A stretch of DNA of 64,000 nt from Hydrolagus colliei. Lineage: Eukaryota. Below the pieces are notes generated by a model. That model did not search any database, was not told the DNA's origin, and saw only the letters and a program-made list of their open reading frames with translations. The position numbers were made by a program, and so were the translations under genes. Positions within the stretch are counted from its first letter, which is position 1, and each line of letters begins with the position of its first letter. Location: positions 7,874,001 through 7,938,000 of the forward strand of contig CM068751.1 of the NCBI GenBank assembly GCA_035084275.1, written 5' to 3'. Below, piece after piece: positions 1 to 30,500 of this stretch.

Positions 1-120
1 AGGGAGACAACATTTGTCCCAGCAATTTGGTAGCAATTTTCCCTGATTGTTCGCAATGGTCATGGCACTCTGCAGTAAAATCCTTTTTGAGACGTTGCTC
101 CCGCTTTGTGAAATGCCCCC

Positions 121-690
121 TGGCATCCTGTAACTCTGTGGTTAGAGCAATTACCTTATAAGTGAGAGACCTGGGTTCAGTTCCAGGCAGGTCAGGGCGA
201 AACCTTGGGCGAGTTTCCTTACTCCACACGCCTGATAATAATCCTTCAAGAAAACCCCCCCCTCCACCCCTGTGGGCAATTGACTGCTGCGTTTCACTCA
301 CAAATATACAGTCAACAACAACAACTTGGATTTATACAACGCCCTCCACACCAGACGGCGTCTCAGAGCGCTTCACAACAACGGATCCCGGGGCCGAGTC
401 AGGGGAAAAAAGGTGACCAAAAGCGCGGTCGAAATGAAAGGTCTTTAGCCGTGACCTGAAAATAGGAAAAGAGGGGGCGAGGCGAAGAGAGTGAGGAAGG
501 GAGTTCCAGAGCCTCGGGAAGCAGGGGCTGAAGGCATAGCCGCCGATGGTGGAATGGAGGATTCGGGGGACAAGAAGGAGGCCAAAACCCAGTACAGCAA
601 AGTTAATGGTCAATTCATTTTACAGTGTATTCTGTGAAGCGCTTTTGAGATGTCTGGAAGACACATAAAGCACTAGATCAAATGCATTAT
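121..690 (+). mobile_element. tRNA-derived SINE (DeuSINE-like 3' part, L2-like tail), split by an L2
   Basis: A/B-box head at 121-200, body to 312, tail at 607-690. Confidence 0.8.
313..600 (-). mobile_element. L2 3' fragment nested in a SINE
   Basis: (CAA)n tail and AFSPCFPRLWNSLP..FRSRLKT. SINE sequence stops at 312 and resumes at about 607. Confidence 0.8.
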
Positions 691-832
691 TATACCAAAT
701 TTCAAGGAATGTGCCACCATCAAGGAATGTTTTATTTTATTTATTTTAATTTGAAATAGATTGATAGCCGTGTTGTCTTAATGATGGCACAGCGTCACGT
801 GAAGAGAAAACAAAGTTTCTTGAAACTCTCTT

Positions 833-1240
833 TCACGCTTCATCACATCCAGGCTTGACTATGCCAACACTCTGCTCATCAGCCTCTCCAATTCCCCTGT
901 GTCCTCTCCTGCTCCAAGCTCCGGGACCCAATCACCCAGTTTTCCCCAACTCCACTGGCTTCCCATCACACAGACGATTCAATTCAATAACCTCGTCCTC
1001 ACATTTAAAGCCCTCCATGGCCTTGCCCCACCCTACCTCTCCTAACCGCCTACCAACCTGTCCGCTCCATCCACTCAGCAGGCTCTGGCGTGCTCCATAA
1101 CCCCCGACCCACCCGGCCCACGATCGGCGGGCAAGTCTTTAGCCACTCTGCCCCAATTCCATCCCGCAGTCCCTCCGCCTCACCCCACCTCTCTGGCCTC
1201 CTCGAAGTCCTGCCTCAAAACCCTCGTCTTCGAACTTTGG
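833..1240 (+). mobile_element. Degraded L2 fragment
   Basis: Similar to the other L2 copies (tcacatccaggcttgactatgccaac, ctccatggccttgccccaccctacctct). Confidence 0.75.
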
Positions 1241-2476
1241 TCATGCACAAAGTACAATTTCATAACTGATGAAGCAAGATCACCTGCAGGAGCTTAAAGT
1301 GTATCAAGCAAACTGGATAAATAAAAGCAATAGCTGATGTGATATTATCATCAAATGACTGGCTGGCAAGTAGTCCGACGCATAAATATAGGCAAATTAG
1401 CAACTATACTTCTCGTGTAGCCATTGTTGCAGTTGTAGACAGATTTGTACTGCAATCCAGAAGCAAAATTTCAACAAATCACCTTCCAAATGATCCATTC
1501 ATGTAGGTTTTGGCAACTGAACAATCTGCCAAACATTGACTCAGGAATTATAATAATAATCCTCACCTTTCATTGCACACCAAAACCACTTTTTTTTATT
1601 AGAAGTACAAATGACACTTGAAATTTTCACTTGACCTTGATAAATAAAAATTAAACAAAGATTAGCTACACCTTATGAAAGGACTATTGTTAGGACATAA
1701 AACAAAGAAAATCAAGTCACTTTTCATTCCCAATTTAATCCCAGTATTTAGTTGCTTAAATAGTAAATTATAACACAGTCAAATTTTTAATAATTTAAGC
1801 CATTTTAATTCAGGGAATATTAGTTCATGACAACTGTAGTTTATTGAGTCTGAATGGTTTACTATGAAGCAGTTTTTCACCTCAAAAGGTTACAACATTT
1901 TCATATTTTATCCAACCAAAATTTAAATATCTACTGAATTTCCCGTAGAGCAGTTTGCTTCTGGAAGTGGAAGGAATTTGTTTTAAATTTGAAATTTATT
2001 ACTGGAAATAATGTTTCTATATGTAAAGTTGCAATACAATTTATAGTACTAAGACACTTTTATTTTCTATTATAATATGTAATTCCCATTGTTACTGCTA
2101 ATTTGGGTCAAATGCTATTTAGTTTCAGGACAGCTTTGAATAATTTCAAACCCTTCATAATATGGGCATGTACTTGGATTGTGAATACGATGAAATTCCA
2201 TCTTCTCTTTGATTTGGAATGGTTATTTTCAATGTCAAGCATTCCATTTCAAAACAAATTGAAGTAATGAATGGGCATTTCAGTGACACCCGGGGACTTT
2301 GCCAAATCCCCTCGAATGCCAGGCACAATTCTGAAATTTATATCAACATATTTGTACATCAATTGCTAGAAGGTGCTGCAGTTAATGAACATTTGTGCTC
2401 AAGCCAGAAAATTAAAGTAAATATCGTAAGCTGTGCTGGGTTTTGATCCAAGAATTTGCATGCATTGACAGTGCTC

Positions 2477-2522: not shown

Positions 2523-5500
2523 TCAGTAAACAGCAGGTTTTGAAAATTGTCCAGCGAAAAGGACTGCACCTGTATGACCAAAGAAAGCAAAGCAGCAATT
2601 ATAAATAATGTACACATAAGTTACAACTTTAATATGAATCATAATTATAATTAAGGAGTTTCATACAATCTCAGAAACCCAACAGACCCAATTTTTTGTG
2701 AAACTCCCACCCATCTATCTTTCAAGACCTATTCTAGTGTTTAATAATTGACTATTGATGCATTTCAAATTCACAATCCAGGATAATGAATATTGACATT
2801 ATTGAGAAAATAGTGTTTGTTAAACTATTATACTAGACTACTCAATGCCTTGGGACATCCTCCTAGCATGAAAGTGCTCTAAAAATTTAATTTTTATTGT
2901 TGTTATATAATATCCATGGCAATCACACAAGATAATATATAGCAAACTTATTAAATTCTCATCTATTTGCTTGATTGCAAATCTAAATTAGTCATTCCTT
3001 TTGTGTTACTCTAATGAAAATGTATCTAAATCCCATCATATGATATCACAAATGCTGTATTTAAATACCAAAGCTAGATGCTGTATTGTGCTTTTCACTT
3101 CATAGAAAGACAAGGTCTTGAAAGTTAAAATATAATTTTTTTTAATCTATCAAGTTTGTGCAGCAAGCATTTCATGCCACTAGATGGCCCTGTGTTCTCT
3201 CTGGTGCAATACAAGTACTGTACATGTATAATGATATTTGGTGGATTGGCAGTGAATACAACATTTGGGGAAATAAAAATAAAGTTGGTTTGATGACTAA
3301 TGTCCGACTTGAATAAATGCATCAATTCAGAGTGTAAAATAGATTGCTGTCAGGCAGATGGTCTAAATGACAATCAAATTGTTTTGGGAGGTGTGAAGTA
3401 CAGCCAGATGAGTTCCCATAGGGTATTGAAACTATAATAATACTTGAATTTGATATAGCGCTTTTCAAATCTTCTAGATGTCTCAAAGCGCTTCACAGAA
3501 TGTATGGTAAAGAAAATTGACTGTATATTTGTGGGCGAAACGCAGCAGCCAATTGCACACAGTAGTGTCCCACAAACAGTCATAGATCGAAATGACCAAT
3601 TTTGTTATTGTGGGTTTTTTGGAGCGATTATTATTAGGAGTGGAGTAAGTGTGGAGTAAGGAAACTTCGCACTGACCTGCCTGGATTCAAACCCAGGTCT
3701 CACACTTGTAAGACGAGTGCTCTAACCACTGAGGTATGGGACTCCAAAATATCAATGAATACAACAACAAAATTACATTTGTATAGCGCATGTCATTACA
3801 CAATATAATCATGGTAAAATATTTGAAGATTAGGTGCGTACTTAACCAATTTAAGAACTCTGTAACACCAAAGAATATTAGGATATTTTCTCAATTTGAT
3901 ATTGACCAGAGACTCAATTTCTCAATCACTGTAGAGCAGATACAAATAAGGCCATCATGACTGGAATCTTTATTCCATATCAAGGTCTGAAGTTTCCTCA
4001 GGCTTATCCAATAATTAAAGTTTTTACAACAAAGACACCGAATAGAATAGGGAATATTTTACAAAATGTGATTTACCTGTAGGCTTGTGCTGAATAAAAT
4101 AGAGGAAAGGCCTGTTTAAGGTGAATGGGACATTTGATGAAGCAGACTTCAACATAAAGATGGCTCCTGTAATGAGAGGGATGTTATTACTTGGAAATGA
4201 AAGGAACTTTCGGAAATTAAGAGGAAAACGTTTCATACAGCATTGTCTTACAATCATGGTACTTCAAAAAAAAGTTCTACAAATGTGTTTTAAGAGGTCG
4301 GGGGTGGGAGCGGGGGGTGGGGGAAGAGAGATCACAAATATACAGTCAATACACTTTACAGTATATTCTGCGAAGTGCTTTGAGACGTCTAGAAGATGAG
4401 AAAAGTGCTATATCAAATGCAAGGATGATTATTATTACCACACTAGTGTAATAATAATAATTCTTGCATTTTGTATAGCGCTTTTCACTTCTTCTAGACA
4501 TCTCAAAGCGCTTCACAGAATATTCTGTAAAGTGAATTTACTATATATGTGGGCCAAACACGCCAGGCAATTGCGTACAGCAGTGTCCCACAAACAGTCA
4601 TGGATTGAAATGACCAAATTTATTATTGTTCTTTTTGAGGGTTTATTATTAGGCATGTGGAGTAAGGAAACTTGCCCAAGGTTTCACCCTGCCTGGAACT
4701 GAACCCAGGTCTCTCAATTGTAAGGCGAGTGCTCTAAACACTGAGCTACAGGACTCCCTTTCGCGCCATTCACATTGCAAAGATGTCCCAGGGTGCTGGA
4801 ACTGAGCTATGGTCAGTAAGGGTGGAGGGAAGGCGGATGAGGGTGGGAGGGTGGCTAAAGCCATGGTCAAAGGAGGATGGTTTTTAAACAGGATTTAAAG
4901 TAGGCAAGAGAGGGGGTGAGCTGGAAGGATTGTGGGATAGAGTTCCAGAGTGTAGGTACAGAGATGTTGAAAGGCCATTGACTTACTAGCGGCCAGGCTA
5001 GGAATTGACAAATATTACCAGAGCAGGTTTGCCTTTGATTAAACTCTGGAGCTTTTTCCTTTGAATCACTGAACAGCTGTCAAGACTTGCCTGTTGCTGC
5101 AGAGGCTTCAGTTCCTTGTTCATTCACTTCAATTTTAGCCCTTTGAAACATGTTTGAAACAAAGATTGCAGCAGTCCCTGTAAACAGAACAAAGGCAATG
5201 GAAATGCGTACCTCAAAGAGCTATCAAAAAAAGTTTTCCAAACAAATAGTTGAATAAACATACTGGAAATCCTTGGAAAACTTGCTCTCATTGGATCAAA
5301 CATAGCAGTAAGTCCAAGAGCAGAAAGAGGTTCTACCAAGTCGGTCTGCACATCAGCGGTGAATCTATTACAGAAGAAGGAATAGTCAAACAAACAAGCA
5401 AACACAGCTACCAGTAAATGAACGAGCCGACTCATTTACAAAAACGATGTAAAATAAAAATGCATTCAAAGCTTGGCTCAGTTGTGAATTTTGCGCCTTA

Positions 5501-8500
5501 GTTTAGGGTTCAGGAACATGATTTCACCCGACATGTACAATGTGGGGGATGCTTGACTGTTGCTGGGGCTATCCTTCAGATCAACGTTAACACAATCATC
5601 TCTCAGAGGTTTCAGAGAAACACCAAAAGAATCCACTTTTTGAAGAGCAAGAGTTTCAGGCTGGGGGACAATCAGTTCACAAGTAGCGAATCAGCTGTTG
5701 TCACTGCAGGGATTCAGAACTGGGCTGACAGTGAGAGTGTGGTAGCGACTGAGACTGTGACTATCCACACAGTGTGTAATATGTAATTGGAGCTCCTGTA
5801 GCTCAGTGGTTAGAGCACTCGCTTTACAAGTGCGAGACCTGTGTTCGAATCCAGGCAGATCAGGTCGAAACCTTGGGGGCAACTTTCCTTACTCCACATG
5901 TCTAATAATAATACAATCCAAAATAACCACAATATAAAAAAATTGATCATTTTCAATCCACGACTATTTGTGGGACACTGCTGTGTGCAATTGGCTGCCA
6001 CATTTCACCCACAAATATACAGGCAATTCACTTTACAGTAAATTCTGTGAAGCGTTTTGAGACATTGATAAAATGTGAAAAGCACTATATCAAATGCAAG
6101 GATTATTATTAGTTTTATTATTCTGTGTCTTAAATGCCAATCCCTACACATCCAAGTCCCCCAAAGGTGGACCAATTGATCATTGACCTGCTGACTGTTG
6201 GTGGAATGTTCATGGTAGAAATCAGCTCTCATATTTGGCGACACAATAAGTCTATTTTAAACTGAACTGCGCGAGGAACCCACGTTGTACAATCAGCTCT
6301 AAACCATAGCTACATCAATTCAAGAATCTATGAAAACCTTTACAGCAGAAAGCAAATGGTCCAGACATACTTTGGTATGACAACAGTAAGATGTTTTGGC
6401 TTTAGTATTGCTTGCCAGTTTTGGATGGTTGATACGTTGAAATTAGAAGCTATTTCCCAAAGTTGTCTGTGTCTTCCAGTGTCTACTGGAAGAGCAATAA
6501 ACATGCTGATAGTCCCTTGATATGGCAGTTCAAGGACATAGTATCTCAGATTATTAAGTGGTGATGCAGCAATACCTGTGGAATCAAAGCAAAATTTCAG
6601 ACTCTACATGTTTACTTATATACCCAGTTAAATTATTGACTGTGCTATATTTAGCTTCTAACTTCTGCTCGCCAACCATTCATGCGGTCACATTAAAAAC
6701 CTTCTAAACCAGATTCCAGACTGAAACCAAAACTTTAACACAATGGGAAGAGGGGTAACAGAATCTCCCATCACTCTATTGTGGAGTCCTGCAGCTCAGT
6801 GGTTAGAGCATTCGCCTTACAAGCATGAGACTTTTTGTTCGAATCCAGGCAGGTCAGGGCGAAACCTTGGGCAAGTTACTTACTCCACACTTCTAATAAT
6901 AATCCATCCCCCAAAAACCTATGATAAATTGGTAATTTCAATCCACGACTGTTTGTGGGACACTGCAGTGCGCAATTGGCAGCCGCGTTTCGCCCACAAA
7001 TATGCAGTCAATTCACTTTACAATATATTCTGTGAAGCACTTTGAGACGTCTAGAAGACGTGAAAAGCACGATATCACATGCAAGGATTATTATTATTGG
7101 ACAATCGCACCATCGTTCCCTCAGTCACGTGCGCACTCCAATTAGGGGGTGGCACCTTCTTGTAGATTGTAGAACTAAATAATTCAACTGGTCAAGACTC
7201 ACAGAGAAATGTTATTTGATTGATCTGTAGACCTACCAAATTTGAAATGCGATGCTTGAGCCATCATGGGCACTTGATAAATATTCCCGTCCGCTGCCCT
7301 GAACTCCTCCTTGTGGGTATTTTTCGGATTAAATTGGGAATTCCACAAACCTTGGAAATATACAGCATTGACCACAACAAGCATTGGTGAGTTAATCAGA
7401 TCATCAGAGGAAATCAGATGATCGATCATACCTGGGAAGCAGAAATCAAATCAGAATATTTGAGTAAACTTAAGCGGATGATCAATCATTACATCACATC
7501 TTTAAGTTGAGCATCTTGAATGACTGCTTGTAAATAGTGCAATAGTGGCTACCATTAAAAGCAAACTGAATTTGTGCATCAGATAGAAAACTGACATCTC
7601 ACTTCCCTCCCTCTTCCCCCATCCCTCAATTCTCCCACTCCACTGTCAAAAAATAACCAAACATACTCCCAAGAGTATGATTAATCTAATTCAAACAATT
7701 TCTTATTCCATTGGCTGCTTGAAGATGCACCTAGAGTATTGTGTGCAGTATTGTTTGGTTTCCTTGTTTAAGAAAGGACATACTCGCCTTAATGTAGATT
7801 CATTAGATTGGTTCCTGGGATGAGGATAGGTTGAGTGATCTACCTATATTCTCTAGAATATAGAAGAATTTGAGGTGATCTTAGAGAAACCTATAAGATT
7901 ATTAAGTGGCACGACAGAGTAGACAGTGGGAGACTGTTTCCCCTGGTTGGAGAAACTAGGGGTTATTGTTTTAAGATTAGAGGTCAGCCTTCTTGCACTA
8001 AGTTGAGGAAGAACTTCTTCACTCAGAGGATAGTGAATTTATGGAATTCTCCACCCCAAAATGCGGTAGATTCTCAGTCCTTGAACATATTCAAGATGGA
8101 GATTGATAGATTTCTTACGGACAAAGTGATTAAGCGATATGGGGATAAGGTTTGTAGCTGGAGTTGGATTAGAAGATCAGCCATGATCTTATTGAATGGC
8201 AGGGCAGGCTTGAAGGGCCTCCTGCTCCTAATTCTTATCTTCTTCTGTATGGAATATGTACCTTCAGTTTGTTTAGCAACCCAGTTGTTGATTGATGAAG
8301 CAGCTTGCTCTGTGGAGCCAAAATCTAAACTCTTCACTTCCGCTTGGAATATCTTTTTAATCTTGTTAACAAATGGTCGTTCCAAGTCAAAACTTGCATC
8401 TGGAAAGATACCACTGGAGATAATAACTGTGTCTTTGTTCTTCTCAGTTAGATGCCTGCGTACAGTTTCCAAGCTTTGGCGAGCATCTGTTGAAGAATCA

Positions 8501-9782
8501 TTTAGTATAGAGAAATTATCACATCCTTAAATCCCAGAAAATAACAACAACAAAATTAATTACAAATTACAATTACATTTATAGAGCACCTTTCATGTCG
8601 GGAGGACATCCCCAGGTACTGAACAGTTAGGTCGGGACCCGAGCAGGGGTGGGGAGGGTCGGATTAGGGGCAGGGGGACAGAGACTAGGAAAGGGTCGGA
8701 GAGTTAGGAGGGCAGCAGAAGGCACAGTTGAAGAGAAATGTCTTGAGACCGGCCTTGAAGGAAGAAAGGGAGGAAGCGAGGTGAAGGGATTGTGGGATGG
8801 AGTTCCAGAATGTGGGGGCAGAGAAGCTGAAAGCCCGGCAACCGATGATAGGGCAGTTTGGGCGGGGGACATGGAGCAGGCCGAAGCCTGCTGAATGGAG
8901 GGGACGGGCAGGCTGAGAGGGAGACAGCAGGTCGGAGAGATAGGCGGGGGCAAGGCCATGAATGGCCTTGAAAGTGAGGACAAGGATCTCAAATTCGATC
9001 CTCTGGGGGACGGGGAACCAGTGTAGACGGGCGAGGGTGGCAGTTATGTGGTCGCGGAGCCTCGTGCAGGACAGCACACGAGCTGCAGAGTTCTGAATAA
9101 TCTGCAGCTTGTGATGGGAGGAGCTGGGATGGCCGACGAGTTAAGAGTTCCCGTAGTCAAGCCTTGATGTGATAAACGTGTGACCAAATGTTTCGGCAGC
9201 GTGGGGGGGTGGGGGGGTGAGGCAATGGCGGAGTCTGGCAATGATACGGAGCAGCAGCTTGCTCACCATTCATTTCAACTTTTGGAACTTGTGATTCATA
9301 ATTATGGCGAGTCACAGAGGGTAGGTGGTGCTAATAATAATAGTACTCCTTGCATTTGATGTAACACCTTATCATGTCTTTGAGACGTCTCAAAGCACTT
9401 CACAGAATATACTCTGAAGTGAATTGACTGTGGATTTTGCAGCAGGACATCATCAGCCCCACTAAAACAGAAAAGTATCAATGCATTCCGCAACAACAAT
9501 TAAAACAAGTCAAAACGAACCAAATGTGTTGTACTTCAGAATGTTGGTCAACTGTTTCTTTGTTCTCCTACTTGCTCCTAATTGGAGCATCGCAAGTATG
9601 GCTCCAATCCCATATGGGGAGATGGCAATGTTGTCCAATTCGGTGGAGTTAACAAGATATCTGAATACACTCATTCCCGTTTCCGACCCCAGGTCCGATA
9701 CTCGGTCGGTCATGTAGCAGCGGTCAGACTGCAAAACCAGACCGATCACGATGAGGAAACCAAATCTTCCCATTTTCCACAT
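2523..9782 (-). CDS. SERPINE2: SERPINE2/protease nexin-1-like serpin, copy A (403 aa, inhibitory-type hinge, P1-P1' Lys-Ser)
   Basis: Eight coding exons join in frame: 9521-9782, 8262-8486, 7237-7431, 6371-6575, 5264-5364, 5091-5177, 4077-4166, 2523-2569 (1212 nt, ending TGA). Signal peptide MWKMGRFGFLIVIGLVLQSDRC. Serpin motifs: NIAISPYGI, NAVYFQGLW, QVPMM, ELPYQG, EVNEQGTEASAATGAIFMLKS, LNRPFLYFIQH, GAVLFAG. Exon layout matches clade E serpins, and FAM124B is nearby as for mammalian SERPINE2. It is a divergent paralog, not necessarily the 1:1 ortholog. Confidence 0.9.
3434..3745 (-). mobile_element. tRNA-derived SINE, full length
   Basis: Matches the family consensus seen more than 25 times in this window. 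Confidence 0.88.
4450..4757 (-). mobile_element. tRNA-derived SINE, full length
   Basis: Head GGAGTCCTGTAGCTCAGTG and (ATT)n tail; faces a plus-strand SINE tail at 4330-4437. Confidence 0.88.
5789..6122 (+). mobile_element. tRNA-derived SINE, full length
   Basis: A box TAGCTCAGTGG, B box GTTCGAATCC, body tgtgggacactgctgtgtgcaattggctgcc, (ATT)n tail. Confidence 0.9.
6782..7097 (+). mobile_element. tRNA-derived SINE, full length, specific to serpin copy A
   Basis: Consensus match; copy B has the empty site actctattggat at about 17635. Confidence 0.9.
7728..8247 (+). mobile_element. CR1-clade LINE 3' fragment, specific to serpin copy A
   Basis: RKNFFTQRIVNLWNS..FKMEIDRFL. Copy B has the empty site gaagatg|tatggaatatgtac at about 18283. 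Confidence 0.9.
8542..9251 (-). mobile_element. L2-clade LINE 3' fragment, specific to serpin copy A
   Basis: HITATLARLHWFP and RAFSFSAPTFWNS motifs; absent from the homologous intron of copy B near 18575. Confidence 0.92.
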
Positions 9783-10295: not shown

Positions 10296-11366
10296 CACCA
10301 ATCAATGTACCAAATGACTTTGTCTAGAAAACAAGATCCTTTCCAGGCAGCAAGTGAATGCTTCTCTTCAGAAACTAAATAGAAACGTTCTACCTTAAAA
10401 CCAATCCAGTCCTTTGGATTGTAAACAAACGACCTCGAAACTGGGACCATTCTCTTCCGAGAGCGACTGTCGAAAATATCAATGACTAACCATAGCAACA
10501 GAATAAAACAAACTGGATTTACAAACATTTGCATTTTCAACACAAAAACATGCATTCGAGGCATTTAAACTTTACAGCAGCGAACAATACAGGGATAAAA
10601 TGTTAAAGCTTCCACATAAAGCAATTATAGTATTTATCTGACTCTCACTGAACTAATTCCTTAATCAATAGCTGAACAAAAGTTGTTTCAACTACTAAAA
10701 TATTGCCTCAAAGTTCTATCAGTCCTGCCCAGGATGCTGGAAATGAACAATTCAGTGTAAAGTTACTTAAAATGTACTATTTCAAGTAACTATTTGATGC
10801 GTCATTACTAAGCTATGAACCATAAATCCTGCAGATGTAAACCACATTTTGTTAATGAGAACTTCAGATTTTGGAAACAGCTCATAATCAGAATTCATAA
10901 AATTCAACCACTAACATGGCAAAGAGATTCAACTGGTATTTTGTATGAAAAAATGTACATCATTCGATTGCAACAGATTGAACAGAATAGGCACTTAATA
11001 TTGTTCAGCGAGGTAAATTTCTCCAACGAGAAATTGCTCGATTCTCAAGATGTTTTGCTTTAAAGAGAGAAAGCTTCTTTTCTAATTAATTGCAACCAAC
11101 GCCAATGAATACTGTATGGTTAAACGCCAATGTCGTTAACACCACCATAACTGAAGTTAACAACTTTCATAATTAACCGTATGTTTCGAATTAAGCATTG
11201 GAAGCAACCGCAGTCAGGAAGGAAGCCAACTTTCTAAACTTTTCATACCACTCAAACATTATCTGACAAGAGTTCTCTTCCCTCCCGTCATCCTCCCAAC
11301 AAAAAAAATCAGTTATAAAAATTGCAAAGAAGGCAACAATATCGCTTCCGCACTAAACTAACTCAC

Positions 11367-11645
11367 TTTAACTCGATCTGAACTGTCACAAAATGTCTGT
11401 CGAACTAACACAGGCATTGCCCTGAACTAATCAAAAGTCCACTGGGAGTAAACACTGCAAAGCCACCGTTGGAACAAGAAACTAAACCAACGAAAACTTT
11501 TTTGTCAGATCTCCTGTTTGTTGTTAAGTTATTCAACACTACAAATGTTTCACTTCCACCAAATCCTTTTGAGAGCTTGGTTTTTGTACAAACTCTACCA
11601 TACTCTGTATACTCACCTCTACCTTTACTTGTATATATATACACA
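11367..11645 (-). promoter_or_regulatory. Possible non-coding first exon and TATA-like promoter of serpin copy A
   Basis: Donor-like AAA|gtgagt at 11361-11369 and a TATATATA run at about 11632-11641. The first coding exon has an acceptor at 9801-9802, so an upstream UTR exon is required. This location is only a guess. Confidence 0.3.
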
Positions 11646-13221
11646 CACACTCCAGGCCCTTTGCAAATGTACCTTTCAAGTGTGGCTCCAGTCTCGCTTT
11701 TATACATGGTATTTTTGATTGAGGGAGTGGTGGTGATGGTGGTGGGGGTGGTGGATTGATCTCAATCTCAGAGCTGCCTGTCCCAGTTTGTTCAAACCCA
11801 GCTGCTTTGCACTACTCCAGTCCACATTTTGCTTCATGTATAAAACAGATCCTAACATGGTAGGAAGCAGCTATTTGGCAATCGGCTTGAATGTCAGCAA
11901 GTTGTTTAAAGGGACAATCCAACCACACAGAGTCAGTGCAATATTATTATTATTTATGCTAATAAATAATATTATCTTTGCATTTGTTATTTGGGGTGGG
12001 GGAGGGTGGGGGTGGTGGTGGGGGGAGGTTGCCAATTAGGACGGATCACTTGTCTTGGCAAAGTGATTGGCAGTTTTTTTGATTGGCAGAATCAACTGTT
12101 GTCCCAGCAATTTGGTGGTAACTCTTCTTTTCTAATTAATCCGATATTTTGTTCGCCTACAGGGTGGGCATGGTGACTTTACTCCGCAGTAAAATCCTTT
12201 TGAGACGTTGCTGTATTGACTTTGGTGAAACCCAAAGTCAATACAGAGCAAAATGAATAGACTAATAGAAACTTTATTAAGGGTATGTATTAAGGGAACA
12301 TTAGAAACCACAGGATAGGCAATAATCATCTCAATGGTCCCAAAGTTTGTGACATCCATCCATACATTACTCATGCTCTCAATTGATTTATTTGCCAAAT
12401 GGTGATCTAATTCCTCTAGAATTTCCTGACATAATCTGTCATCTGGATAAATCATTCCACATACAGAATTCTTCCATCTGTATTTAATGAGGTGGACATA
12501 AGTGTGGAGTTACCCAATCTTGTGCGTTACTGAATCACATTGGAAATCCAAGCCACTTACATGATTGATTAGAAAATGATTAAGCATTTGTATACTGATG
12601 TTTCACCATGTCTTCAAAAGAGATTGTTTTCTTTGCATGGAATCTTCCTTTGTTTGTACAATCCAATTGTGGATACTGCATTCTGCTTTATAATAATAAT
12701 AATCCTTGCATTTGATATACTGCTTTTCACATCTTCTAGACGTCTCAAAGCGCTTCACAGAATATACTTAAAGTGAATTGACTATATTGGTGAGCAAAAC
12801 GCGGCAGCCAATTGCGCACAGCAGTGTCCCACAAACAGTCGTGGATTGAAATAAAGTAGGTCCCATTTCCCAAACGATAAGACTTCAGAGGTTCTAACAT
12901 GAAGTAAAAATGTTGGAATATAACTTAAACCAGCAGTTTAAAAAAAACCTTCAGTCTTCAAATAATAATAAGTCAGAATTAAAACATTTGAAGCTTTACA
13001 CTAGGCTTTATGCAATTGGAAAATTATTGGCATGCGCAAAATTGTAATGAAATATACTACCACCCATCCATTTCAGTCAGATAAGAATTGCACAACCATC
13101 CAATACATCAACCTAGCCATATCGCAAAAACAATTACTGAGAAGGAAAAAGACCTATTCGATAAGATCAACACCTTTTGGCTAGTATTTTCAGTCAGCTA
13201 TCAATGCATATGTGCATTCAA

Positions 13222-13997
13222 GGCTCTCCACTTCTCAAAGCCAGTCAGGAATCTGGGCGTCTTGTTTGACCCCGAACTGTCCTTCCTGCTTTATATCCGC
13301 TCCATGACCGTCACAGCCTTCCACCACCTCCGAAATATTGCCAGACTCCGCCACTACCTCATCCCCGATGCCGCCAAAACTCTCATTCACGCCTTTATCA
13401 CCTCCAGGAACGGGAACTCTTTCCTTGTCGGCCTTCCCAGCTCCTCGCTTCACAGGCTGCAGATCATTCAGAACTCTGCAGCTCGTGTACTCTCCCGCAC
13501 CAGGCTCCGTGACCACATCACTCCCACCCTCGCCCGTTTCTACTAGTTCCCCATCCCCCAGACGATCGAATTCAAGATCCTCGTCCCAACTTTCAAGGCC
13601 ATTCACGGCCTTGCCCCCACGTGTCTCCGATGTGCTGTCTCCCTATCAACCTGCCTGTCCCCTCCGTTCAGCAGATTCTGGCCTGCTCCGTGTCCACCGC
13701 CCAAACTGCCCAACCATCGGTGGGCGGGCTTTCTGCCTCTCCGCTCCCATACTACGGAACTCCATCCCGCAATCCCTTTGCCTCACTTCCTTCCTTTCCT
13801 CCTTCAAAGCCTGTCTCAAGACTTTCCTCTTTGACAGCGCCTTCGGCTCCCCTTCTAACTCTTCCCTCTCCCCTACTCTACTTCCCCTTCCCCCAACCCT
13901 CCTCCCACTGCTCGGGCCCCGAACTAACTGTTCAGCGCCTTGGGACATCCTCCCGACATGAAAGGCGCTAGACAAGTGTAATTTTGTTGTTGTTGTA
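13222..13997 (+). mobile_element. L2-clade LINE 3' fragment
   Basis: [31 protein letters not shown] motifs; (TTG)n tail. Confidence 0.93.
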
Positions 13998-14292
13998 TTT
14001 GACTTTATTAGATGCACCATCCATTCTAAAAGTTTACCCTAATTTGAGCTGGTAATTTAGTGTGCTTGGTAATCAGTTTGATAGCAATACAATTTCATAG
14101 CTGATGAAGCAAGACCGCATTCCAAGAGCTTTGAACGCCAGGGGCACAATTCTAAAATTTATATCAACATATTTGTATATCAATTGCTAGTAGATGTTGC
14201 AGTTAATGAACATTTGTGTACTAGCCAGAAAAGTTAATATCGTAAGCTATGATGGCTTTCGATCCATGAGTTGGCATGCAATGACAGCGCTC

Positions 14293-14298
14293 TTTATT
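14293..14298 (-). terminator. Candidate polyadenylation signal of serpin copy B
   Basis: AATAAA about 33 nt after the stop codon, homologous to 2477-2482. Confidence 0.5.
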
Positions 14299-14330
14299 GG
14301 CCCGCTATTTTGACAATCTTGACTGGATTT

Positions 14331-17300
14331 TCAGACATCGGTTATGCAAGGGTTTGAAACCCGCCCAGCGAAAAGGACTGCACCTGTATGAGCAAAGAAA
14401 GCAAAGCAGCAATTATAAATTATGTACACCATAAGTTACAATTTGAATATGAATCTTAATTATAATTAAGGAGTTTCATGCAATCTCACAAACCCAATAG
14501 AATAGTTTCCCAATTTTTTGTGAAACGCCCAAGACCTCAAGACCTATTCTACTATTTAGTAATTGACTATTGATGCATCTCAAATTCACAATCCAGTATA
14601 ATGAATACTGACATTATTGAGAAAACAATATTTAGAAAACTATTATATAATATCCATGGCAATCACATAAGATAATATCCAATAAACCTATTCAAGTTTT
14701 TCTTATCTATTTGCTTGATTGTAAAACTAAATTAGTCATTCCTTTTGTGTTATTTAATCAAAATTAATCTAACTCCCATCATTTGATATAAGAAATCTGG
14801 TGGTTAAATACTAAAGCCAGATGAAAGCCAGAGGGCCAATTTTCTTCTGTTCCTCCCCATCCCCTCACCCTCTCATTGACAAGTTCTTGAAAGTTAAAAT
14901 GGCAATTTAAAAAATCTATTGTTTGTATAGCAAGCATTTCATGCCACTAGATATCCTTGTGTTTATATATGTACAAATACATGTATGATGACATTTGGTG
15001 GACTGGCAGGAGTACAACCTTTAGGGAAATAAAAATAAAGTTGGTTTGGTGACTAACTTCATTCAGTCTTGAATAAATCAACGAATTCAGAGTGTAAAAT
15101 AGATTGCTGTCAGGCATATGGTCTAAATAATAATCAAATTGTTTTGTGAGGTGTGCAGTATAGTCAGATGGGTTTCCATAGGAAACAAAATGAATACAAT
15201 AACACAATTACATTTGTCTAGCGCATGTCACTACACAGTACAATCACTGTAAAATATTTGAAGATTACGTGCTTGCTTAACCATTTTAAGAACTTTGCAG
15301 CAACAAAAAATACTGGGATATTTTCTCAATTTGATAATGAACAGAGACTTAATTTCTCAATCAATATAGAGCAGATACAAATAAGGCCATCATGACTGGA
15401 AGCCTTATTCCACATCAAGGTCTGACGTTTCTTCAGGCTTATCCAATGAAATGGTTTTACAATAAAGACATTGAATAGAATAGGGAATATTTTACAAAAT
15501 GTGATTTACCTGTAGGTTTGTGCTGAATAAAATAGAGGAAAGTTTGGTTTATGATGATTGGCTTTGTTGAGATCGGACCGCGCAATATCGGATCATAAAC
15601 TGTAATGAAAGAGAAGTTATTACAGTACTAGGAAATGAAAGCACCTTTCTGAAGTTAAGAGGAAAATGTTTCAGACAGCGTTATATTCCAGTCATGATAC
15701 TTCAAAAAAAAATTCTATTAAATGTTTTTAAGGGGTCGGGGGTGGGAGAGGGTGGTTAAAACAAGGAAAACAAGAAAAAAATCTGTATGAGGGAAAGCCA
15801 TTTCCAATTGTTCTGTAAGACTACTCAATAATCAAGTTATAGCTGTACAGAAATATTCATATTTGCATTATGCTGTTCTCAACAACAACATACACTTGTA
15901 TAGCACCCTTCACATTGGAAGATGTCCCAGCCTGTTGGACAATCAGGGGTTTTCGAACCAAACTGGGAGTTCCAGGGTTAACGGGCAGAGATGTCAAATG
16001 CCCATTGACTTACAAATGGCCAGGCTAGGAGTTGACAAGTATTAGAAGAGGATGTGTGCTTTTAATTAAGCTCTGGAGCCTTTTCCTATGGAGCACTGAA
16101 CAGCTGTCAAAACTTGCCTCCTCCTTCTTCATTCACTTCAATTTTTGCCCTTTGAAACAACCTTGAAACATCGATTGGACCAGTCTCTGCAAATAAAACA
16201 AAGTCAATGGAAACTTGGAAACCTCAAAGAGTTATCAAAAACGTTTTTCAGCCAAATATTTTAATAACCATACTGGAAATCCCCGGAAAATGTGCTCTCA
16301 CTGGATCAAACATATCAGTAATTCCAAGAGCAGTAAGAGGTTTTATCAAGTCGGTCTGCACATCAGAAATGAATCTATAACAGAAAAGGGAATGTTCAAT
16401 CAAATAAGCAAACACAGGCTATCGGTTAATAAATGAGCCGACTCATTTAGAAAAACTATGCAGAGTAAAAATACATTCATTGCAGTTTGGCTCAGTTGCC
16501 TTGCTTGGAAGATTGTGAATTTGTGCCTTAGATTAGGGCTCAAGATCATAATTCTACCCGACATGTACCATGGGGGAATGCTCCATTGTTGCTATACTTC
16601 AGATCAATATTAATACAATGCTCTTTCCTCACCCCACTTGTTTTTTGGGGGGGTTTCGGATGCACACAAAAATAATCCACTCCACTATTTTTGAAGAGCC
16701 AGGAGATTCTGTGGCCCAAGTCCCAATCCCTACACATCCAAGTACTGTACTCCAAAAATGGACCAATTGATTATTAACCGACCGACTGTTGTGGGACGAT
16801 CACGTTAGAAATTAGCTCTCATATTTGGCCACACAATAAGTCTATTTCAAACTGAATTGCACGAGGAATCCAATATTGTACAATTGTCTCTAAAGCATAG
16901 CTACATCAATTCAAGAATCTACAAAAATCTGTACGGCAGAAAGCAAAGGCTCTAGACATACTTTGGCATCATAAAAGTGATTTGTCTCTTCCGTAGTATT
17001 CCTTGCCAGCGTAGGATGGTTTGTACGTCGATTTGAGAAGCTGTATCCCAAAGTTGGAAGTGACGGTCTAGTGGATAAACAATAAACATGCTGTTGTGCC
17101 CTTGATATGACAGTTCAATGACATAATATCTCAGATGATTACGTGGTGTTGCAGCAATACCTGTGGAATCAAAGTAGAATTTCAGACTCTGTATATACTT
17201 ATACACCCAATTAAATTATTGACTGTACTTTATTCAGCTTTATTCAGCTTCTAGCTTCTGCTAACAGCAGCCATCAACCCAAACACCAGCTTATTATGGA

Positions 17301-19106
17301 AGTATTTTGCCATTCACTGTGAATAGACATTCAATAAAACTTGAAGGTATAACAATACATATTCTTGTACACATGAAGCTCTTGATTTGTATCAATTTAT
17401 CACTGATGATAAAATCTCACTTTAGTCCTTGTGCAGAATGAATGTTCACTCTCAATTTTATTCACTGTGTACATTGATTTTAAATTATCTTTGTTGTATT
17501 GAATAGCAAACTTCATAGGAGTCGCTCATCAACCATTCATGGAGTCACGTTAAAAACCTTCTACAACCAGATTCCAAACTGAAACCGAGACTTTAACATA
17601 ATGGATAGAGGGGTAACAGAATCTCCCATCACTCTATTGGATATCCCCACCATCGCTTGGAGGATATTTCCAAGTTCCCTCAGTCACTTGTGCACTTCAA
17701 TTAGAGGTAATCTGATTGTGGTGTTAAATAATTCAACTAGTCAAGACTCACAGAGACAAGTTACTTTATTGAGTTTTAGACTTACCAATCTTGAAACTTG
17801 ATGTTTTAAACATCATGGGCACTTGACAAATATTCCCGTCCGCTGTTGTGAACTTGTAAAGTTCGGTGAGTTGACGTTTAAATTGGGAATTCCACAAACC
17901 TTTGAAATATACAGCATTGGCCCCTACAAGTACGGTCGATTCATCTTGATCATCAGAGGAAATCAGATGATCGATCATACCTGGGAAGCAGAAATCAAAT
18001 CAGAATGTTTGAGTAAACTTGAGTGGATGGTCAATCATTACATCACATCTTTAAATTGAGCGTTTTGAATGACTACTTGTAAATAGTACAATAATGGCTA
18101 CCATTTAAAAAAAAACTGAATTTGTGCATCGGGTAGGAAACTGATATCTCACTACCCTCCCTTTTCCCCCACTCCTCAATTCTCCCACTCCACAGTCAAA
18201 AAATAACCAAACATACTCCCAAGAGTATGATTAATCTAATTCAAACATTTAGATTTTCCTATTCCGTTGGCTGCTTGAAGATGTATGGAATATGTACCTT
18301 CAGTTTGTTTAGCAACCCACTTGTTGATTGATGAAGCAGCTTGTTTTGTGGAGCCAAAATCTAAACTCTTCACGTCAGCATGGAATATAATTTTATTCCA
18401 CTCAACAAATCGGCGTTCCAAGCTAAACTTTGCATCTGTAAAGATACCACTGGAGATAATAACTGTATCTTTGTTCAACTCAGTTAGACGCCTGCGTACA
18501 TTTTCCAAGTTTCGGTGAACAGCTGTTGAAGAATCATTAAGTACAGAGAATTTATCACATCCTTAAATCCCCAAAAAACAGCAGTTTGCTTACAATTCAT
18601 TTTATCATTGGGAACTTGTGATTCATAATTGTAGCGAGTCACAGAGGGTAGGTGGTAATAATAATAATAGTACTCCTTGCATTTGATTTGGCACCTTATC
18701 ACGTCTTCGAGATGTCTCAAAGCACTTCACAGAATATACTCTGATGTGAATTGAATGTGTATTTTGCAGCATGACATCATCAGCCCCAGTAAAATAGAAA
18801 AGTATCAATGCATTTTCTAACAATAAAAACAAGTAAAAACGAACCCGATGACTTGAACTGCAGAGCGGAGGTCAACTGTTGCAGTGTTCTACCACTTGCT
18901 CCTATTTGGAGTATCCCAAGTAGGTCTCCAATCCCGTATGGGGAGATGGCAATGTTGTCTATTTCAGTGGAGTTAACAAGATATCTGAATACTCTCAATC
19001 CCATCTTTGACTGATTTATCGAAATTTGATCGAACGTTAAACAGCGGTGAGACTGCAAAACCAGACCGATCACGATGAGGAAACCAAATTTTCCCATTTC
19101 CCCCAT
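14331..19106 (-). CDS. SERPINE2-like serpin, copy B (397 aa, hinge-deleted, predicted non-inhibitory)
   Basis: Eight coding exons join in frame: 18845-19106, 18298-18522, 17786-17980, 16962-17160, 16274-16374, 16118-16186, 15510-15599, 14331-14383 (1194 nt, ending TGA). No stops or frameshifts, and all splice sites are intact. Reactive loop reads EVNEEGGVYDPILRGPISTKPIIINQTFLYFIQHKPT. Confidence 0.88.
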
Positions 19107-19406
19107 CTTGGACAGGTTCAATCTAAAAGATAAAATCAAATGTGAGGCCTGTGTGAGCTCGGAAATTCAAAATAATAACAAGCCCAAACAAGCAGGAAAA
19201 TTAACTAAGCTTTTGATGGCTTGGAATGGTACTATTCCACAAATCATAACACGCCTCTGCCGAATGCAATCTTAAAAGTTCTGTCACTCCTGGCCAAGAT
19301 GCGGGAAATGAATATTTAACTATAAAGTTACTTGAAATTTACCATTTACTCCATAAATTTACCATCAATTATGATTAGGAGCTGTTCCAAAATATATAGT
19401 TCTCAT

Positions 19407-20365
19407 TAGGGTCCGGCAATATGTCGATATATCGCTAAAACCCGATATAATTTTCATATCGATACCCTGATATAGGCATTTCAGAAATATCAATATATCG
19501 AAAAATCTATATATCGAGGTAAAAAATCGGAATGCGCGCACACTGAACTACAAGACCCAGAATGCTCATCTCTATACACAATGCACAGACCGAGGTGCAA
19601 AGCTGCCGTATTGTATTTATAGTCCTCGAATACAATATACAGGTATGCAAGGGGTGAGTGGGTGGGAGAGAAGGCTGGGGGAGGGGTGGGGGGGGGGGGA
19701 GAGATGGCTGGGGGGTGGGGGAGAGATGGCTGGGGGGTGGGGGGGAGAGAGACGGCTGGGAGTGGGGGGAGAGACGGCTGGGGGGGTGAGGGGGGGAGAG
19801 AGACGGCTGGGGGGGGAGAGAGACGGCTGGGGCGGGTGGGGGGGGAGAGAGACGGCTGGGGGGGTGGGGGGGGAGAGAGACGGCTGGGGCGGGTGGGGGG
19901 GAGAGAGACGGCTGGGGGGGTGGGGGGGGGAGAGAGACGGCTGGGGGGTGGTGGGGAGGGAGAGAGACGGCTAGGGGGGGCGTGGGGGGGAGAGCCAGAC
20001 GGCAGGGGGGGGGGGAGGGAGAGGGAGACGGCTGGGGGGGGTGGGGGGGGAGAGGGACGGCGGGGGGGGCGGCGGGAGAGACGGGGTGGTTGTGATAATA
20101 TACAGATAGATAGAGATTGGGGGGATGTGAGAGAGACACAGAGACACAGACAGAAAAACACAGAGATGGAGAGAGTGAGAGACACAGAGAGAGAAAAATA
20201 TTTACCTCTTGAGGAGACAGGCCCCGAATGCACGTGCACTCCGAATGCGCGGGCTGCGCACACATGCGCAGTGCAAAAACCCCGAAAATATCGATATTTC
20301 GGTATATCTCGATATGAGCCCATCGATATAGCTATATCGGAAAATTTCCATATAGACGGACCCTA
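19407..20365. mobile_element. Non-autonomous hAT-type DNA transposon (MITE)
   Basis: TIRs TAGGGTCCG...CGGACCCTA. Perfect 8-bp TSD GTTCTCAT (19399-19406, 20366-20373). Subterminal ATATCG/CGATAT repeats. No transposase. Confidence 0.9.
19665..20090 (+). repeat. G-rich minisatellite, unit about 25 bp (GGGGGGGAGAGAGACGGCTGGGGGGGT)
   Basis: More than a dozen tandem GAGACGGCTGGGG cores separated by G-runs, inside the hAT element. Confidence 0.9.
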
Positions 20366-20859
20366 GTTCTCATTAACAAAATGTGATTTATATTTGCATA
20401 TTGGTTGTGCAACTATATTCGTATTTTGTATAAAAAATGTATACCATTCGATTGTTAAATATGAACAGAATGGCCACTTAATACTGTTTAGCAAGGTAGA
20501 TTCGTTTTACAACTAGAAATTGCTCGATTTTCCAGGTGTTTTGCTTTAAAGAATGAAAGCTTGTTTTTTAAATTAATACAAATGAATACTGTATAGGTAA
20601 ATAATCATAATAATAATAATAATCCTTACCTTTATATTGCGCTTTCCACGTCTTATCAACGTCTCAAAGCGCTTCACAGAATATAACAATTGGGACCAGG
20701 GAGGGAGAAGACAAGAGGGAAGAAAGGGGGGAGAAGAGGTGGGGACCAGAGCAGGGGGGTAGGGGTTGTGGTTGGGGAAAGTAGGAAATTGACTGTATAT
20801 TTGTGGGAGAAACGCAGCAGCCAAATTGTGCATAACAGTGCCCCACAAACAGTTGTGGA

Positions 20860-21125
20860 AGTGGGGTTAGGGGAGAAAGGGGGAAAAGAGGATACGGGGG
20901 ATACAGAGGTGAAGGTGGGGTAAAATCAGGGAGGAAAAGAGGGGAGAAAGGGGGTTAAGGGGGAAGAGAGAGGGAAAGATGGTGGGGGGCGAGATCAGGG
21001 AGAAAGGGGGGGTAAGGTGGAAGAGGGAGGGAAGGGGGAAAGGGGGGAGAGAAAGGTGGGAAAGGGAATGAGGGAAGAAGAATAAGGGGGGGGGTGGGGA
21101 AAGGCCAGGAGATGGGGGGGGGAGA
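20860..21125 (+). repeat. Purine-rich (G/A) low-complexity tract
   Basis: About 260 bp almost entirely G and A. Confidence 0.8.
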
Positions 21126-21256
21126 TCAAACAACAACAATAAACAACAAAAGCAACAACAATAACAATCAACAATAGTCCAGTAACTGCTCCTTGTCCTC
21201 GCCACCTACCTGGACCATCGTCTTTAACACCACCAGAACTGAAGTAACAACTTTTA

Positions 21257-21880
21257 CATAAGAACATAAGAAGTAGGAGCAAGACTAGGCCATTCAGCCC
21301 TTCAAATCTTCTCCCGCCATTTAATAAGATCATGGCTGATCTTCTATTCTAATTCCATTTCCCCCATCCTATCCTCATATTGCTTAAACCCTTTAGCTTT
21401 TAAAAAACGGCCTATCTCACTCTTGAATGTGTTAAATGAGTGAGCATCACCACCGCCTTTTTGGGGTAGAGAATTCCATAAATTTACTACCCTCTGAGTG
21501 AAGAAATGGCTGATTTTTAATCCTATAATCCATAGTTTTAGATTCCCCAACCAGTGGAAACATTCTCACAACATCTACCCTGTCAAGGCTCTTAAGAATC
21601 TTATAGGTTTCCATAAGATCCCCTCTAATTGTTCTATATTCTAGAGAATATAGGCCAAGTTTACTCATCCTGTCCTCATAGGGCAATGCAATCATCACAG
21701 GAACCAACCTGGTAAATCTATGTTACATCCCTTCTAAGGAGAGTATATCGTTTCATAGATAAGGAGACCATAACTGCACGCAAAATTCAAGTGCCATCTC
21801 ACTTGAATGTGAGGCCCTATACAGTTGCAGCAAGACTTCCCTATTTTTATGCTTTAACCCCTTTGCAATAAACACTAATG
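21257..21880 (-). mobile_element. CR1-clade LINE 3' fragment
   Basis: LEFCVQLWSPYL, YEDRMSKLGLYSLE, RGDLMETYKIL, FFTQRVVNLWNSLP motifs; (CATAAGAA)n tail. Confidence 0.9.
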
Positions 21881-27554: not shown

Positions 27555-30500
27555 CTATTTAATCCAATCATTAAGAAGCTGTAAGATCTCTTGTCTTCCT
27601 CTTGTAAGCTGTGGTGGGTCCTCTGCTCGTGCTGGATACATGTTAGCACAGTGGGCTGTACCTGTTAAGGTGAGTAAGAAATACTTGTAAAATATATCGC
27701 TGAGCATGTCTTCTAAGAATTGCGTTTCCACAAAATTAACCTCAACTACATCAACTTATCAACAGGGTTGCAAAACATTCTGAATTCAACCTTCACAGAT
27801 TTTCTACAGATGCACAAGTACAATTAACCAAGTCACCACCACCCATTGTCATGTTCCCACATAGAACTGTATTATTATTTATTATATTAATATTACAGAC
27901 CATTAACCAATCCAATAAGCCCCAACTCCCTCTGACCCAACCAGCCAAAGAATGCTGTCAGGTTTGCCTATATGTATTAACACTCAATTGTCTCAAAGCA
28001 AGCATTGCACCTCCGTATACTGTGTAAGCAAGTTAACAGGTCCGAGACCCGAAAAGGTCTAGAATGTTTATAATGTTCATTTAACAATTAACATCTTTTA
28101 GAAAAAACCCAAACGGATCCTGCACACAATAACAATCACAACAAACTTACATTTCTAGAGCGCTCTTCACGTAAGGAGGACGTCCCAAGGCACTGAACAG
28201 TCAGTTCGGGACCCGAGCAAGGGGGAAGGGCAGGGTAGAGGGGAGGGATGGAGTTATGTGGGGTGGGAGAGAGTTGGGAGGGCAACAGAAAGCATGATCG
28301 AGGAGGAGGGTCTTGAGATGGGCCTTGAAGGAGGCAAGGGAAGAAGCAAGGTGAAGGGATTGTGGGATGGAGTTCCAGAGTATGTGGGCAGAGAGACTGA
28401 AAGCCTGTCCACGATGGTAGGTCGGGTCGGGTGGGGGGACATGGAGCAAACCAGAGCCCGCTGAACAGAGGGGGCGGGTAGGTTCATAAGGGGATAGCAG
28501 GTCAGAGTGATAGGAGGGGGCAAGGCCGTGAATGGCCTTGAAAGTGAAGGCCAGATCCAGGTGCATTGCTTGATTGACTTTGGTAACATTTTGTCAACCA
28601 ACTCTGTCAAAGAATACATGTAAGGCTCACTTATAGTAACCCCTTTTTGGTCTGGTATATTTACACATCAGTAAACTCTGTGTGTTGACACTTGCCATGG
28701 TGAGAGAAGTCACTAGGTATTAATACTCATTATAAGTAGAGCAAGATGATGTGGCAATTATCAACAGGAACTGTGCATCAATCTATCAACATTAATCCTC
28801 ATTTTTAAAAAAGCAAATACGGAAACAAATTTATAATCTGTATTAAAATAAATCCTCAATTTCTTGTTCTGATCATAATGGTTGAGAATACCGTGTTACA
28901 TTTTTATTCTGCCGGTGCTTTGATGTACAGGTAAAAGTTTGTATCTCCCTTCATGATTATTCATTTTTAGGGAGGTTGGATGGAGAAGGATAGGAGTGCT
29001 GGAGTCTGAATAAGTCACTACTGTATAATGATTATATAAGTAACAGAGCAGCTGAAAGAACAAATAAAAAAGCACATTCAATGTTTTCTTTTGAAACACA
29101 ATCATTTTACACTTGATGGAAATGAACACATAACTAACACATAAATGAAGCAAGCTGCACTCCTGGCTGTTGAACACATTCTGTTAGTGGTAAGCTCGAC
29201 CATAATAATTTCATACCAATCCATCATCAATGTGGTTCAACCATTTAAAACTTCCTAGTGCTCGATAAAAACAAACTGTTGAGTAATGTCGGTAAATGTC
29301 CATGAAACTTTAAAACCATCAGCTGGTTGTGAAATGTTGTTGCTGTTCAGTACTTGCTGCCTGTATTTTCCTTATTCAATAATTATGCAGACTAAGTCAT
29401 AAATGAAAGGATTAAGATTCCATTGAGGAAAGAATAAGAAAAATGCATGTAGCAAAGTCTAACATCAGCGGAAATGTGAAGAATCGGTGGCTCATAAATC
29501 ATGTTATGTAACATTCGCTACATTTTTAATGAAAGGCTAAATAAATAATACAGCAACAGGGGTTGGCAATTACAACTCTCAATACTAGCTTAATTTTATT
29601 AAAAGAAACATCTAATGTAACAGCATTGATGTGGATTTTTAATGTATGCACTATCATTACTCTCTTCAAAAAAAGGAACCACAAATACATGATGTAATGT
29701 TTGGGCTAAAGAAACTAGCTAGACAGTGGTCTTCCAGATACCTTCAAATTTACAAGAAACAATTGGTTCTTGTTAAATATTCTACTTCTAACAGCTTGGC
29801 CTTTTATTCAGACCTGGTCTTCCAGTTGATTGGAATAAGCGCAGGCCGTTGCCCATATGAGATGACTGAAATATCATTGGTGAGCACTTTACAGTGTATT
29901 CCTGTGAAGCGCTTTGAGACATCTTGAGGACATGATCAGGCCCTATATCAAATGCAAGGGTTATTAGTTATTATTATTATTATTATTATCTTCTGTACTG
30001 CACACAGTGTAATATTTATAATAATAATAATCTTTGAATTTGATATAGCACTTTTTCACGTCTTCTAGATGTCTCAAAGCGCTTCAATGTAAAGTGAATT
30101 GACTGTATATTTGTGGGCGAAATGCGGCAGCCAAATGCGTACAGCAGTGTTCCACAAACAGTCGTGGATTGAAATGACCAATTTTATTATTGTGGTTTTA
30201 TTGGAGGGATTATTATTAGGCGTGTGGAGTAAGGAAACTTGCCCAAGGTTTCGCCCTAACCACTGAGCTACAGGATTCCACATTTCAAAAAAAAATACCC
30301 AGATCGTGAAAATGATTGCAAAAACCACTGGTCAAAGTGTGTTGTGTACACAAACAACCAATTATTATGCACTGTTGAAGGAAGAAGACCAGCCGCTGTG
30401 ATCAGTGGGAAGGAAATGTTCTTTACATCCAGTATTATCCTAATTTACAGCTAGGATGTACTTGAGCAAAGACAGTAGATTCACTTTCCGTGATTCATTA

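Follow-up and report, generated by a model that had tools for sequence, protein, structure and literature searches.

Two serpin genes lie in tandem on the minus strand of the 64,000-nucleotide stretch of Hydrolagus colliei DNA analyzed here (the window, to which all positions refer): copy A, encoding 403 amino acids, and, upstream of it, copy B, encoding 397. Our preferred explanation, which we consider probable, is that copy B arose by tandem duplication of SERPINE2, is intact, has evolved under selection, and is likely a stable secreted serpin that does not trap proteases and has taken up a new extracellular binding or secretion role.

Results

Structure of the two genes

Copy A (2523..9782) is a SERPINE2 copy with eight coding exons (9782-9521, 8486-8262, 7431-7237, 6575-6371, 5364-5264, 5177-5091, 4166-4077, and 2569-2523). 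The eight coding exons of copy B (19106-14331) join into an open frame of 397 codons, with six of the seven introns GT-AG and one GC-AG, as in copy A; the proteins are 63% identical (250 of 395 columns). Exon 1 of B (18845..19106) holds the start codon, a hydrophobic stretch resembling a signal peptide and identical to that of A, and a new sequon, Asn31-Gln-Ser. Exon 2 (18298..18522; 225 nt) begins at an acceptor inferred by comparison with the nexin of Callorhinchus milii (P0018). Exon 3 (17786..17980) carries the changes Val182Gly and Val183Ala in strand 3A and a cysteine, Cys214 (17828-17826), and exon 4 (16962..17160) carries Pro245Ser and the motif ELSY. Exon 5 (16274..16374) is followed by the hinge exon (16118..16186), the loop exon (15510..15599), and the last coding exon (14331..14383), which contains Cys393 (14348-14346) and is followed by AATAAA 32 nt past the stop. 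The start context, the 14 splice ends, and the AATAAA signal are all intact, as the first-pass annotation of this DNA had stated for the frame and the splice sites.

The 18-nt in-frame loss that had been claimed for the hinge exon of B is real: the exon measures 87 nt in A and 69 nt in B, with a clean gap of 18 nt. The hinge and loop peptides quoted for both copies, and the equal length of the next exon (90 nt in each), also proved to be as described. The donor of the intron that splits the reactive loop is GC in both copies (5090, CAG/GCAAGT in A; 16117, GAG/GCAAGT in B; the slash marks the exon end). One contig of run X1 (2140 bp) covers 15487-17636, including both the hinge and the loop exon, without an 18-nt insertion; it differs from the window by five other letters and a 10-nt intronic gap. 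The only coding differences of B at single-contig depth in X1 are a silent one at Ile332 and His249Gln, and none is disabling. X1 may be the source sample of the assembly, and thus serves as a check on assembly slips rather than as a second individual.

We ruled out that B is an allelic duplicate or an assembly artifact, given the 14% non-coding difference between the copies and the separate X1 contigs on each of them. Hemizygosity of B was also considered, given an X1 depth of 23-32 on B versus 46-48 on A, but this difference is uninformative: the depth slides smoothly from 48 (4.9 kb) to 20 (22.9 kb) without a step at the border of the duplicated unit, and we therefore rejected this reading. 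With regard to possible gene conversion, the longest identical coding run between the copies is 55 nt.

Locus, ancestry, and age of the duplication

WDFY1 exons are found directly left of the window (in L001-L002) and a FAM124 domain at 59740-60654. With the human gene order as the reference, A and B thus sit in the SERPINE2 neighborhood, between WDFY1 and FAM124B. The gap between the WDFY1 side and the serpins (window 1-2300 and the left flank) is only about 3.4 kb; in human, the interval from WDFY1 to SERPINE2 contains MRPL44. A turtle nexin was used to search the whole genome. The 50 matches of 67 scored candidates included just two that were SERPINE2-like in location and in exon-3 identity, namely A and B, which makes two copies a lower bound; neither a third nor a more conserved SERPINE2 was found in the 60 kb left of the window. 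Of the proteins found, the glia-derived nexin of C. milii, P0018 (XP_007886577.1, V9KHW2), comes closest, with 62% identity to A and 54% to B. Two trees place B as sister to A and both as sister to P0018 (support 100/99), with branch lengths of 0.44-0.45 for B and 0.16-0.17 for A. The eight coding exons have intron phases 1,1,1,2,1,1,1, which we take to be the pattern of group V3, the SERPINE2 lineage. Position, trees, and phase pattern thus agree with the earlier assignment of B as a SERPINE2-like paralog.

The 68 residues that A and B share and that differ from P0018 indicate that the duplication postdates the split from Callorhinchus. The B-side duplicated unit spans approximately 12030..21261 and matches the A side from about window position 1 (and L001:9935) to 11172: upstream, the homology stops at 11172 in A and 21261 in B, and 12030-12212, which matches the downstream flank of A, marks the other end. 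Across 3304 aligned non-coding sites the copies have diverged by 0.16 per site, and several repeats are inserted in only one of them. Substitution rates in this group of fishes are slow. Taken together, these points make it doubtful that B is young, and we do not retain that part of the initial description.

We found no ortholog of B in the protein libraries. Word-based searches returned 0, 17, and 1 matches, all of them tetrapod nexins or C. milii (the query with 0 matches held 13 residues later judged intronic), and a profile search returned 67 matches (best 69 bits), none an ortholog of B; the libraries may be without chimaera proteins, which makes this negative result weak. In Amblyraja radiata, a second nexin-like model of 218 amino acids (XP_032888119.1, P0087) ends just past the hinge exon, and skates may also have duplicated SERPINE2. 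Several other genes were observed around the locus. A peptidase S28 gene, presumably PRSS16-like, lies directly upstream of B (about 29000-39700, minus strand), between the serpins and FAM124B. A TRIM gene (RING/B-box/FN3) lies at 44653-49794 (minus strand) and includes one open frame of 1081 amino acids (45321-48566), rich in Cys and Ser and without a Pfam match. Two further serpins in opposite orientation are found 2 Mb away (L007:5117-8079, at about 9.935 Mb of C18, and about 9.99 Mb of C18); from their arrangement, they are probably SERPINI2 and SERPINI1.

Hinge and reactive loop of copy B

The inhibitory hinge consensus is Glu at P17, Glu, Lys, or Arg at P16, Gly at P15, Thr or Ser at P14, and Ala, Gly, or Ser at P12-P9 (PMC13359619), with loop residues counted from the P17 Glu (PMC3534287). 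The hinge of B reads Glu347-Glu348-Gly349, followed by Gly, Val, Tyr, Asp, Pro, Ile, Leu, and Arg357. It thus matches the consensus at P17 (Glu347, at 16130), P16 (Glu348), and P15 (Gly349, at 16124), and fails it at P14 (Gly350, where inhibitory serpins have Thr or Ser) and at P12-P9 (Tyr352, Asp353, Pro354, and Ile355, where residues should be small). It also breaks the length rule of 16-17 residues from P17 to P1: from Glu347 to Arg357, which stands in the ancestral P1 register (Arg357-Gly358, at 15582-15577), there are 11 residues and not 17. That B violates both hinge consensus and loop length had been proposed before, and our analysis confirms it. Measured from the P15 Gly to the PF motif, the loop has 21 residues in B, whereas A and C. 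milii both have 27 and another six SERPINE2 proteins have 25; by our own count on Table 1 of PMC6379291, the 36 human serpins there all have at least 23. In copy A and P0018 the hinge is canonical and P1 is Lys, and the shark SERPINE2 sequences in supplement 8 of PMC6337849 read LK-S at the reactive bond.

If B used a different splice form or a shifted P1, it might still trap proteases in the classical way; this idea can draw on Glu347, Gly349, and strand 5A, which are kept, and on the GC donor, which is predicted from the DNA. Splicing that restores a canonical hinge had been named in the first-pass annotation as one result that would overturn its reading. Of the donor/acceptor pairs scanned near the loop intron, five are open, and none gives a hinge with Thr/Ser and small residues. 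Donors further downstream of the hinge exon meet an in-frame stop 10 nt into the intron, and counting 17 residues from Glu347 leads to Lys363-Pro364, a register that puts Tyr at P12 and Pro at P10. With the consensus broken, the loop at 11 residues, and no splice pair restoring the hinge, we regard classical covalent trapping by B as very unlikely.

Other changes near the loop carry less information. The replacement of RPF by QTF, creating the sequon Asn368-Gln-Thr (15549-15541), is present as described but is not diagnostic: human SERPINA9, listed as inhibitory in Table 1 of PMC6379291, reads NRTF, and SERPINE2 of Scyliorhinus and of echidna has RSF in place of RPF. Predicted sequons number three in B (31, 45, and 368), two in A, and one in P0018. 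The change of ELPY to ELSY is likewise real but says little, being a single change among 45 conserved non-loop positions. The B stretch STKPIIINQ (15570-15541) resembles TSKPII..NQ of human CBG (PMC6379291, Table 1), a short match and probably due to chance.

Selection and constraint on copy B

For the neutral expectation, B was given half of the non-coding divergence. Neutral drift would then have produced 3.0 stops, 6.1 frameshifts, and 2.3 splice hits in B, and none is seen; the probability of an intact frame with intact splice sites under neutrality is about 1.2e-5, or 0.005 without indels. At P 0.05, as much as the final 26% of the B branch could have been neutral with the frame still intact. 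In comparison with PF00079, six of the seven B exons tested match in order, with E up to 0.15, and the loop exon does not match; the bit scores are lower in B for all five non-loop exons (summed, 169 versus 193 for A). At the non-loop sites that are conserved across the superfamily and common to A and C. milii, B changed 1 of 45 where 7.1-8.4 changes are expected (P <=0.002). We further scored substitutions on a cost profile made of 12 other serpin domains, leaving out A, B, P0018, and two redundant tetrapod rows. The 49 non-loop changes of B (212 sites) cost 1.09 bits each versus 2.04 +/- 0.26 under neutrality, and 0 of 909 simulations were as mild; the 27 changes of A on the same profile cost 0.69 bits each. 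The mild profile cost and the near absence of change at conserved sites show that the fold of B was protected.

The constraint specific to SERPINE2 was instead relaxed: among 143 sites invariant in P0018 and three tetrapod nexins, B changed 28, the neutral rate (23-28), while A changed 8 of 123 sites of this class, with 20-24 expected. Hydrophobic, Gly, and Pro sites changed non-conservatively in B at 9 of 88 positions, with 9-10 expected under neutrality. Val182Gly and Val183Ala are among the costliest changes of B, and may reflect either a relaxed need for sheet opening or a loss of stability.

Protein change in B was also fast. In a codon model of A versus B, omega is 1.48 (dN 0.26, dS 0.18; p 0.039), and 1.54 without the loop (p 0.032); the copies differ at 19.5% of second codon positions, 14.3% of non-coding sites, and 10 of 117 fourfold sites. 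When P0018 is taken as the outgroup, the B branch receives 64 changes and the A branch 33 (p 0.002), and a further 47 differences are unassigned. The branch-wise tests assume an equal neutral split between the copies, use A as a stand-in for the ancestor, and have the outgroup as protein only; on these terms B changed 64 of 246 sites, with 39-49 expected (p <=0.014), and 54 of 230 outside the loop, with 36-46 expected (p 0.002-0.09). At variable sites A is also fast (25 of 92 changed, 15-19 expected). Copy A is itself a fast-evolving protein, at 62% identity to the C. milii nexin. For the new role that had been proposed for B, the selection tests favor a working protein with a new role.

Cysteines and C-terminal tail

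The Cys-containing tail of B had been described as an addition, but C. milii too has five residues past the conserved Asn-Pro, as B does; A has three. The tails of A and B are separated by a 1-nt indel, and it is the frameshift that shortens the tail of A. The tail of B thus has the ancestral length, and only its Cys is notable. Copy A and P0018 have one cysteine each, Cys22, in the signal-like stretch; B has in addition Cys214 and Cys393, the only cysteines of its mature chain. The alignment of B exon 3 to antithrombin has no gaps (1ant; query 4-63 to chain 200-259) and places Cys214 on residue 247, and the GRVSNPC of its last exon aligns with antithrombin GRVANPC, placing Cys393 on Cys430 (E 0.4, in a 14-residue alignment anchored by the conserved motif). 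In antithrombin, Cys247-Cys430 is one of three disulfides (PMC9014201), and none of 16 other aligned serpins has Cys in either column. The codon of Cys214 is a single base away from the Tyr codon of the ancestor; Cys393 could be older than the duplication, since the 1-nt indel beside codon 393 changed the tail of A. A Cys214-Cys393 disulfide can therefore be predicted for B. If real, it would support a folded, secreted protein whose C-terminal piece stays attached after a cut in the loop.

Upstream regions

A motif scan found a candidate TATA box (11704) and a candidate donor of a non-coding first exon (11618) upstream of A on the minus strand (11618..11704). No match to either was found upstream of B, in a search up to 45000; LINE fragments lie in that region, and no promoter was identified for B. 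Several CCAAT-like boxes lie between the copies (12020-12120), and these too lack a counterpart upstream of B. If the duplication was a simple tandem one, B, as the upstream copy, would adjoin the ancestral upstream region, and it may thus use the ancestral promoter.

Discussion

In the explanation that we prefer, a loop six residues shorter and the loss of the small hinge residues would leave B unable to trap proteases. Serpins that lose more than two loop residues become substrates (Zhou et al. 2001, as cited in PMC6379291 and PMC4493575), and the hinge consensus is violated by Tyr at P12 and by Pro at P10, so that by analogy B likely cannot trap. The protein would be secreted. The predicted Cys214-Cys393 disulfide would link the gate with the C-terminal strand, and keep the C-terminal piece of 40 residues attached after a cut at Arg357-Gly358. 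Its basic charge (pI 9.3; A and the C. milii protein are basic too) suggests that it may bind polyanions. That it acts in a gland or a reproductive secretion is a guess prompted by the rapid change.

We rank a non-trapping duplicate at the top, followed by a gene that is now silent, a bait-type inhibitor, and a classical inhibitor, in this order. It is unlikely, in our estimate, that B worked during most of its history and is now silent, recently dead, or only weakly expressed for want of the promoter of A. The lack of a match to the candidate promoter and first exon of A upstream of B, where LINE fragments lie, the neutral rate of change at SERPINE2-specific invariant sites, and the stretch of the branch (up to 26%) that could be neutral with the frame still open would all fit such a history. 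Against it, B would adjoin the ancestral upstream region if the duplication was a simple tandem one, its start context, splice ends, and AATAAA are intact, and the X1 contigs contain no disabling change. Neutrality throughout the life of B is rejected by the survival of the frame, the profile cost, and the single change among 45 conserved sites.

Ranked below this, and also improbable, is a non-classical bait, whose short rigid loop would be attacked by a protease of papain or trypsin type and inactivate it via a transient acyl complex in which the loop is not fully inserted, or which would act as a competing substrate. The 11 residues from Glu347 to Arg357 and the basic residue preceded by Leu in the ancestral P1 register (Lys to Arg) speak for it; Leu-Arg would suit cathepsin L. 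The precedent is Bombyx mori serpin18, in which 11 residues lead to the scissile bond, six below the usual number, and which needs no stable complex to inactivate papain, cathepsin L, and fibroinase (PMC4493575). Yet serpin18 is one insect case, whose loop sequence is unrelated and has Val362 at its reactive site, and Leu at P2 and the basic P1 of B, both ancestral, may be left-overs. From serpin18, with the same 11-residue length, it follows nevertheless that loss of all inhibition in B cannot be concluded: the earlier claim that B cannot trap proteases holds in the sense that classical trapping is very unlikely, whereas the label "non-inhibitory" is too strong. A classical inhibitor, for the reasons given with the hinge, we consider highly improbable.

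A bolder version of our preferred explanation, which we hold tentatively and think more apt to be wrong than right, would make B the first vertebrate serpin of clade E to give up trapping. Under positive selection, it would have lost six loop residues, reached a loop shorter than that of any human serpin, and re-invented the Cys247-Cys430 disulfide of antithrombin, to act in a chimaera-specific gland as a locked heparin-binding secretion protein or as a serpin18-like bait for cysteine proteases.

Loss of inhibition in duplicated serpins is a known theme, and B appears to be a new case of it in clade E. Most non-inhibitory serpins of vertebrates are old, with an inhibitory sister that diverged long ago. 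Here, the trapping and the altered copy are adjacent and 63% identical, and the outgroup is known, so that the deletion, the rewriting of the hinge, the loosening of strand 3A, and the putative new disulfide can be tested step by step. No report of B was found in searches of the open-access literature on chimaera, Callorhinchus, and Hydrolagus serpins, shark nexin, and holocephalan proteomes.

Among known systems, SERPINE2/protease nexin-1 of C. milii is like B in the style of its N-terminus and in tail length, and groups with A and B in the trees, but its hinge is canonical, its loop has 27 residues, its reactive bond is Lys-Ser, and its mature chain is free of cysteine. The human serpins maspin (SERPINB5), PEDF, HSP47, angiotensinogen, and CBG have lost the hinge consensus as B has (PMC6379291, Table 1), and maspin even shares Gly-Gly at P15-P14; they belong to other clades, and the loops of the human non-inhibitory serpins have 23-25 residues by our own count of that table, where no clade-E member is given as non-inhibitory. 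Antithrombin (SERPINC1) shares with B the cysteines at the 247 and 430 columns but is a classical inhibitor of another clade; since synteny, exon pattern, and trees group B with SERPINE2, this match would be convergent. The closest parallel in the loop is B. mori serpin18 (PDB 4R9I), a paralog in a secretory organ with a bulky hinge and a loop likewise six residues short, with 11 residues to the likely cut site (PMC4493575). It is an insect serpin of another clade, and its activity on cysteine proteases has been demonstrated, whereas for B such activity is hypothetical. Copy B would also let the loop-length rule be examined in a natural vertebrate case, and would help to show whether the serpin18 mechanism has arisen more than once.
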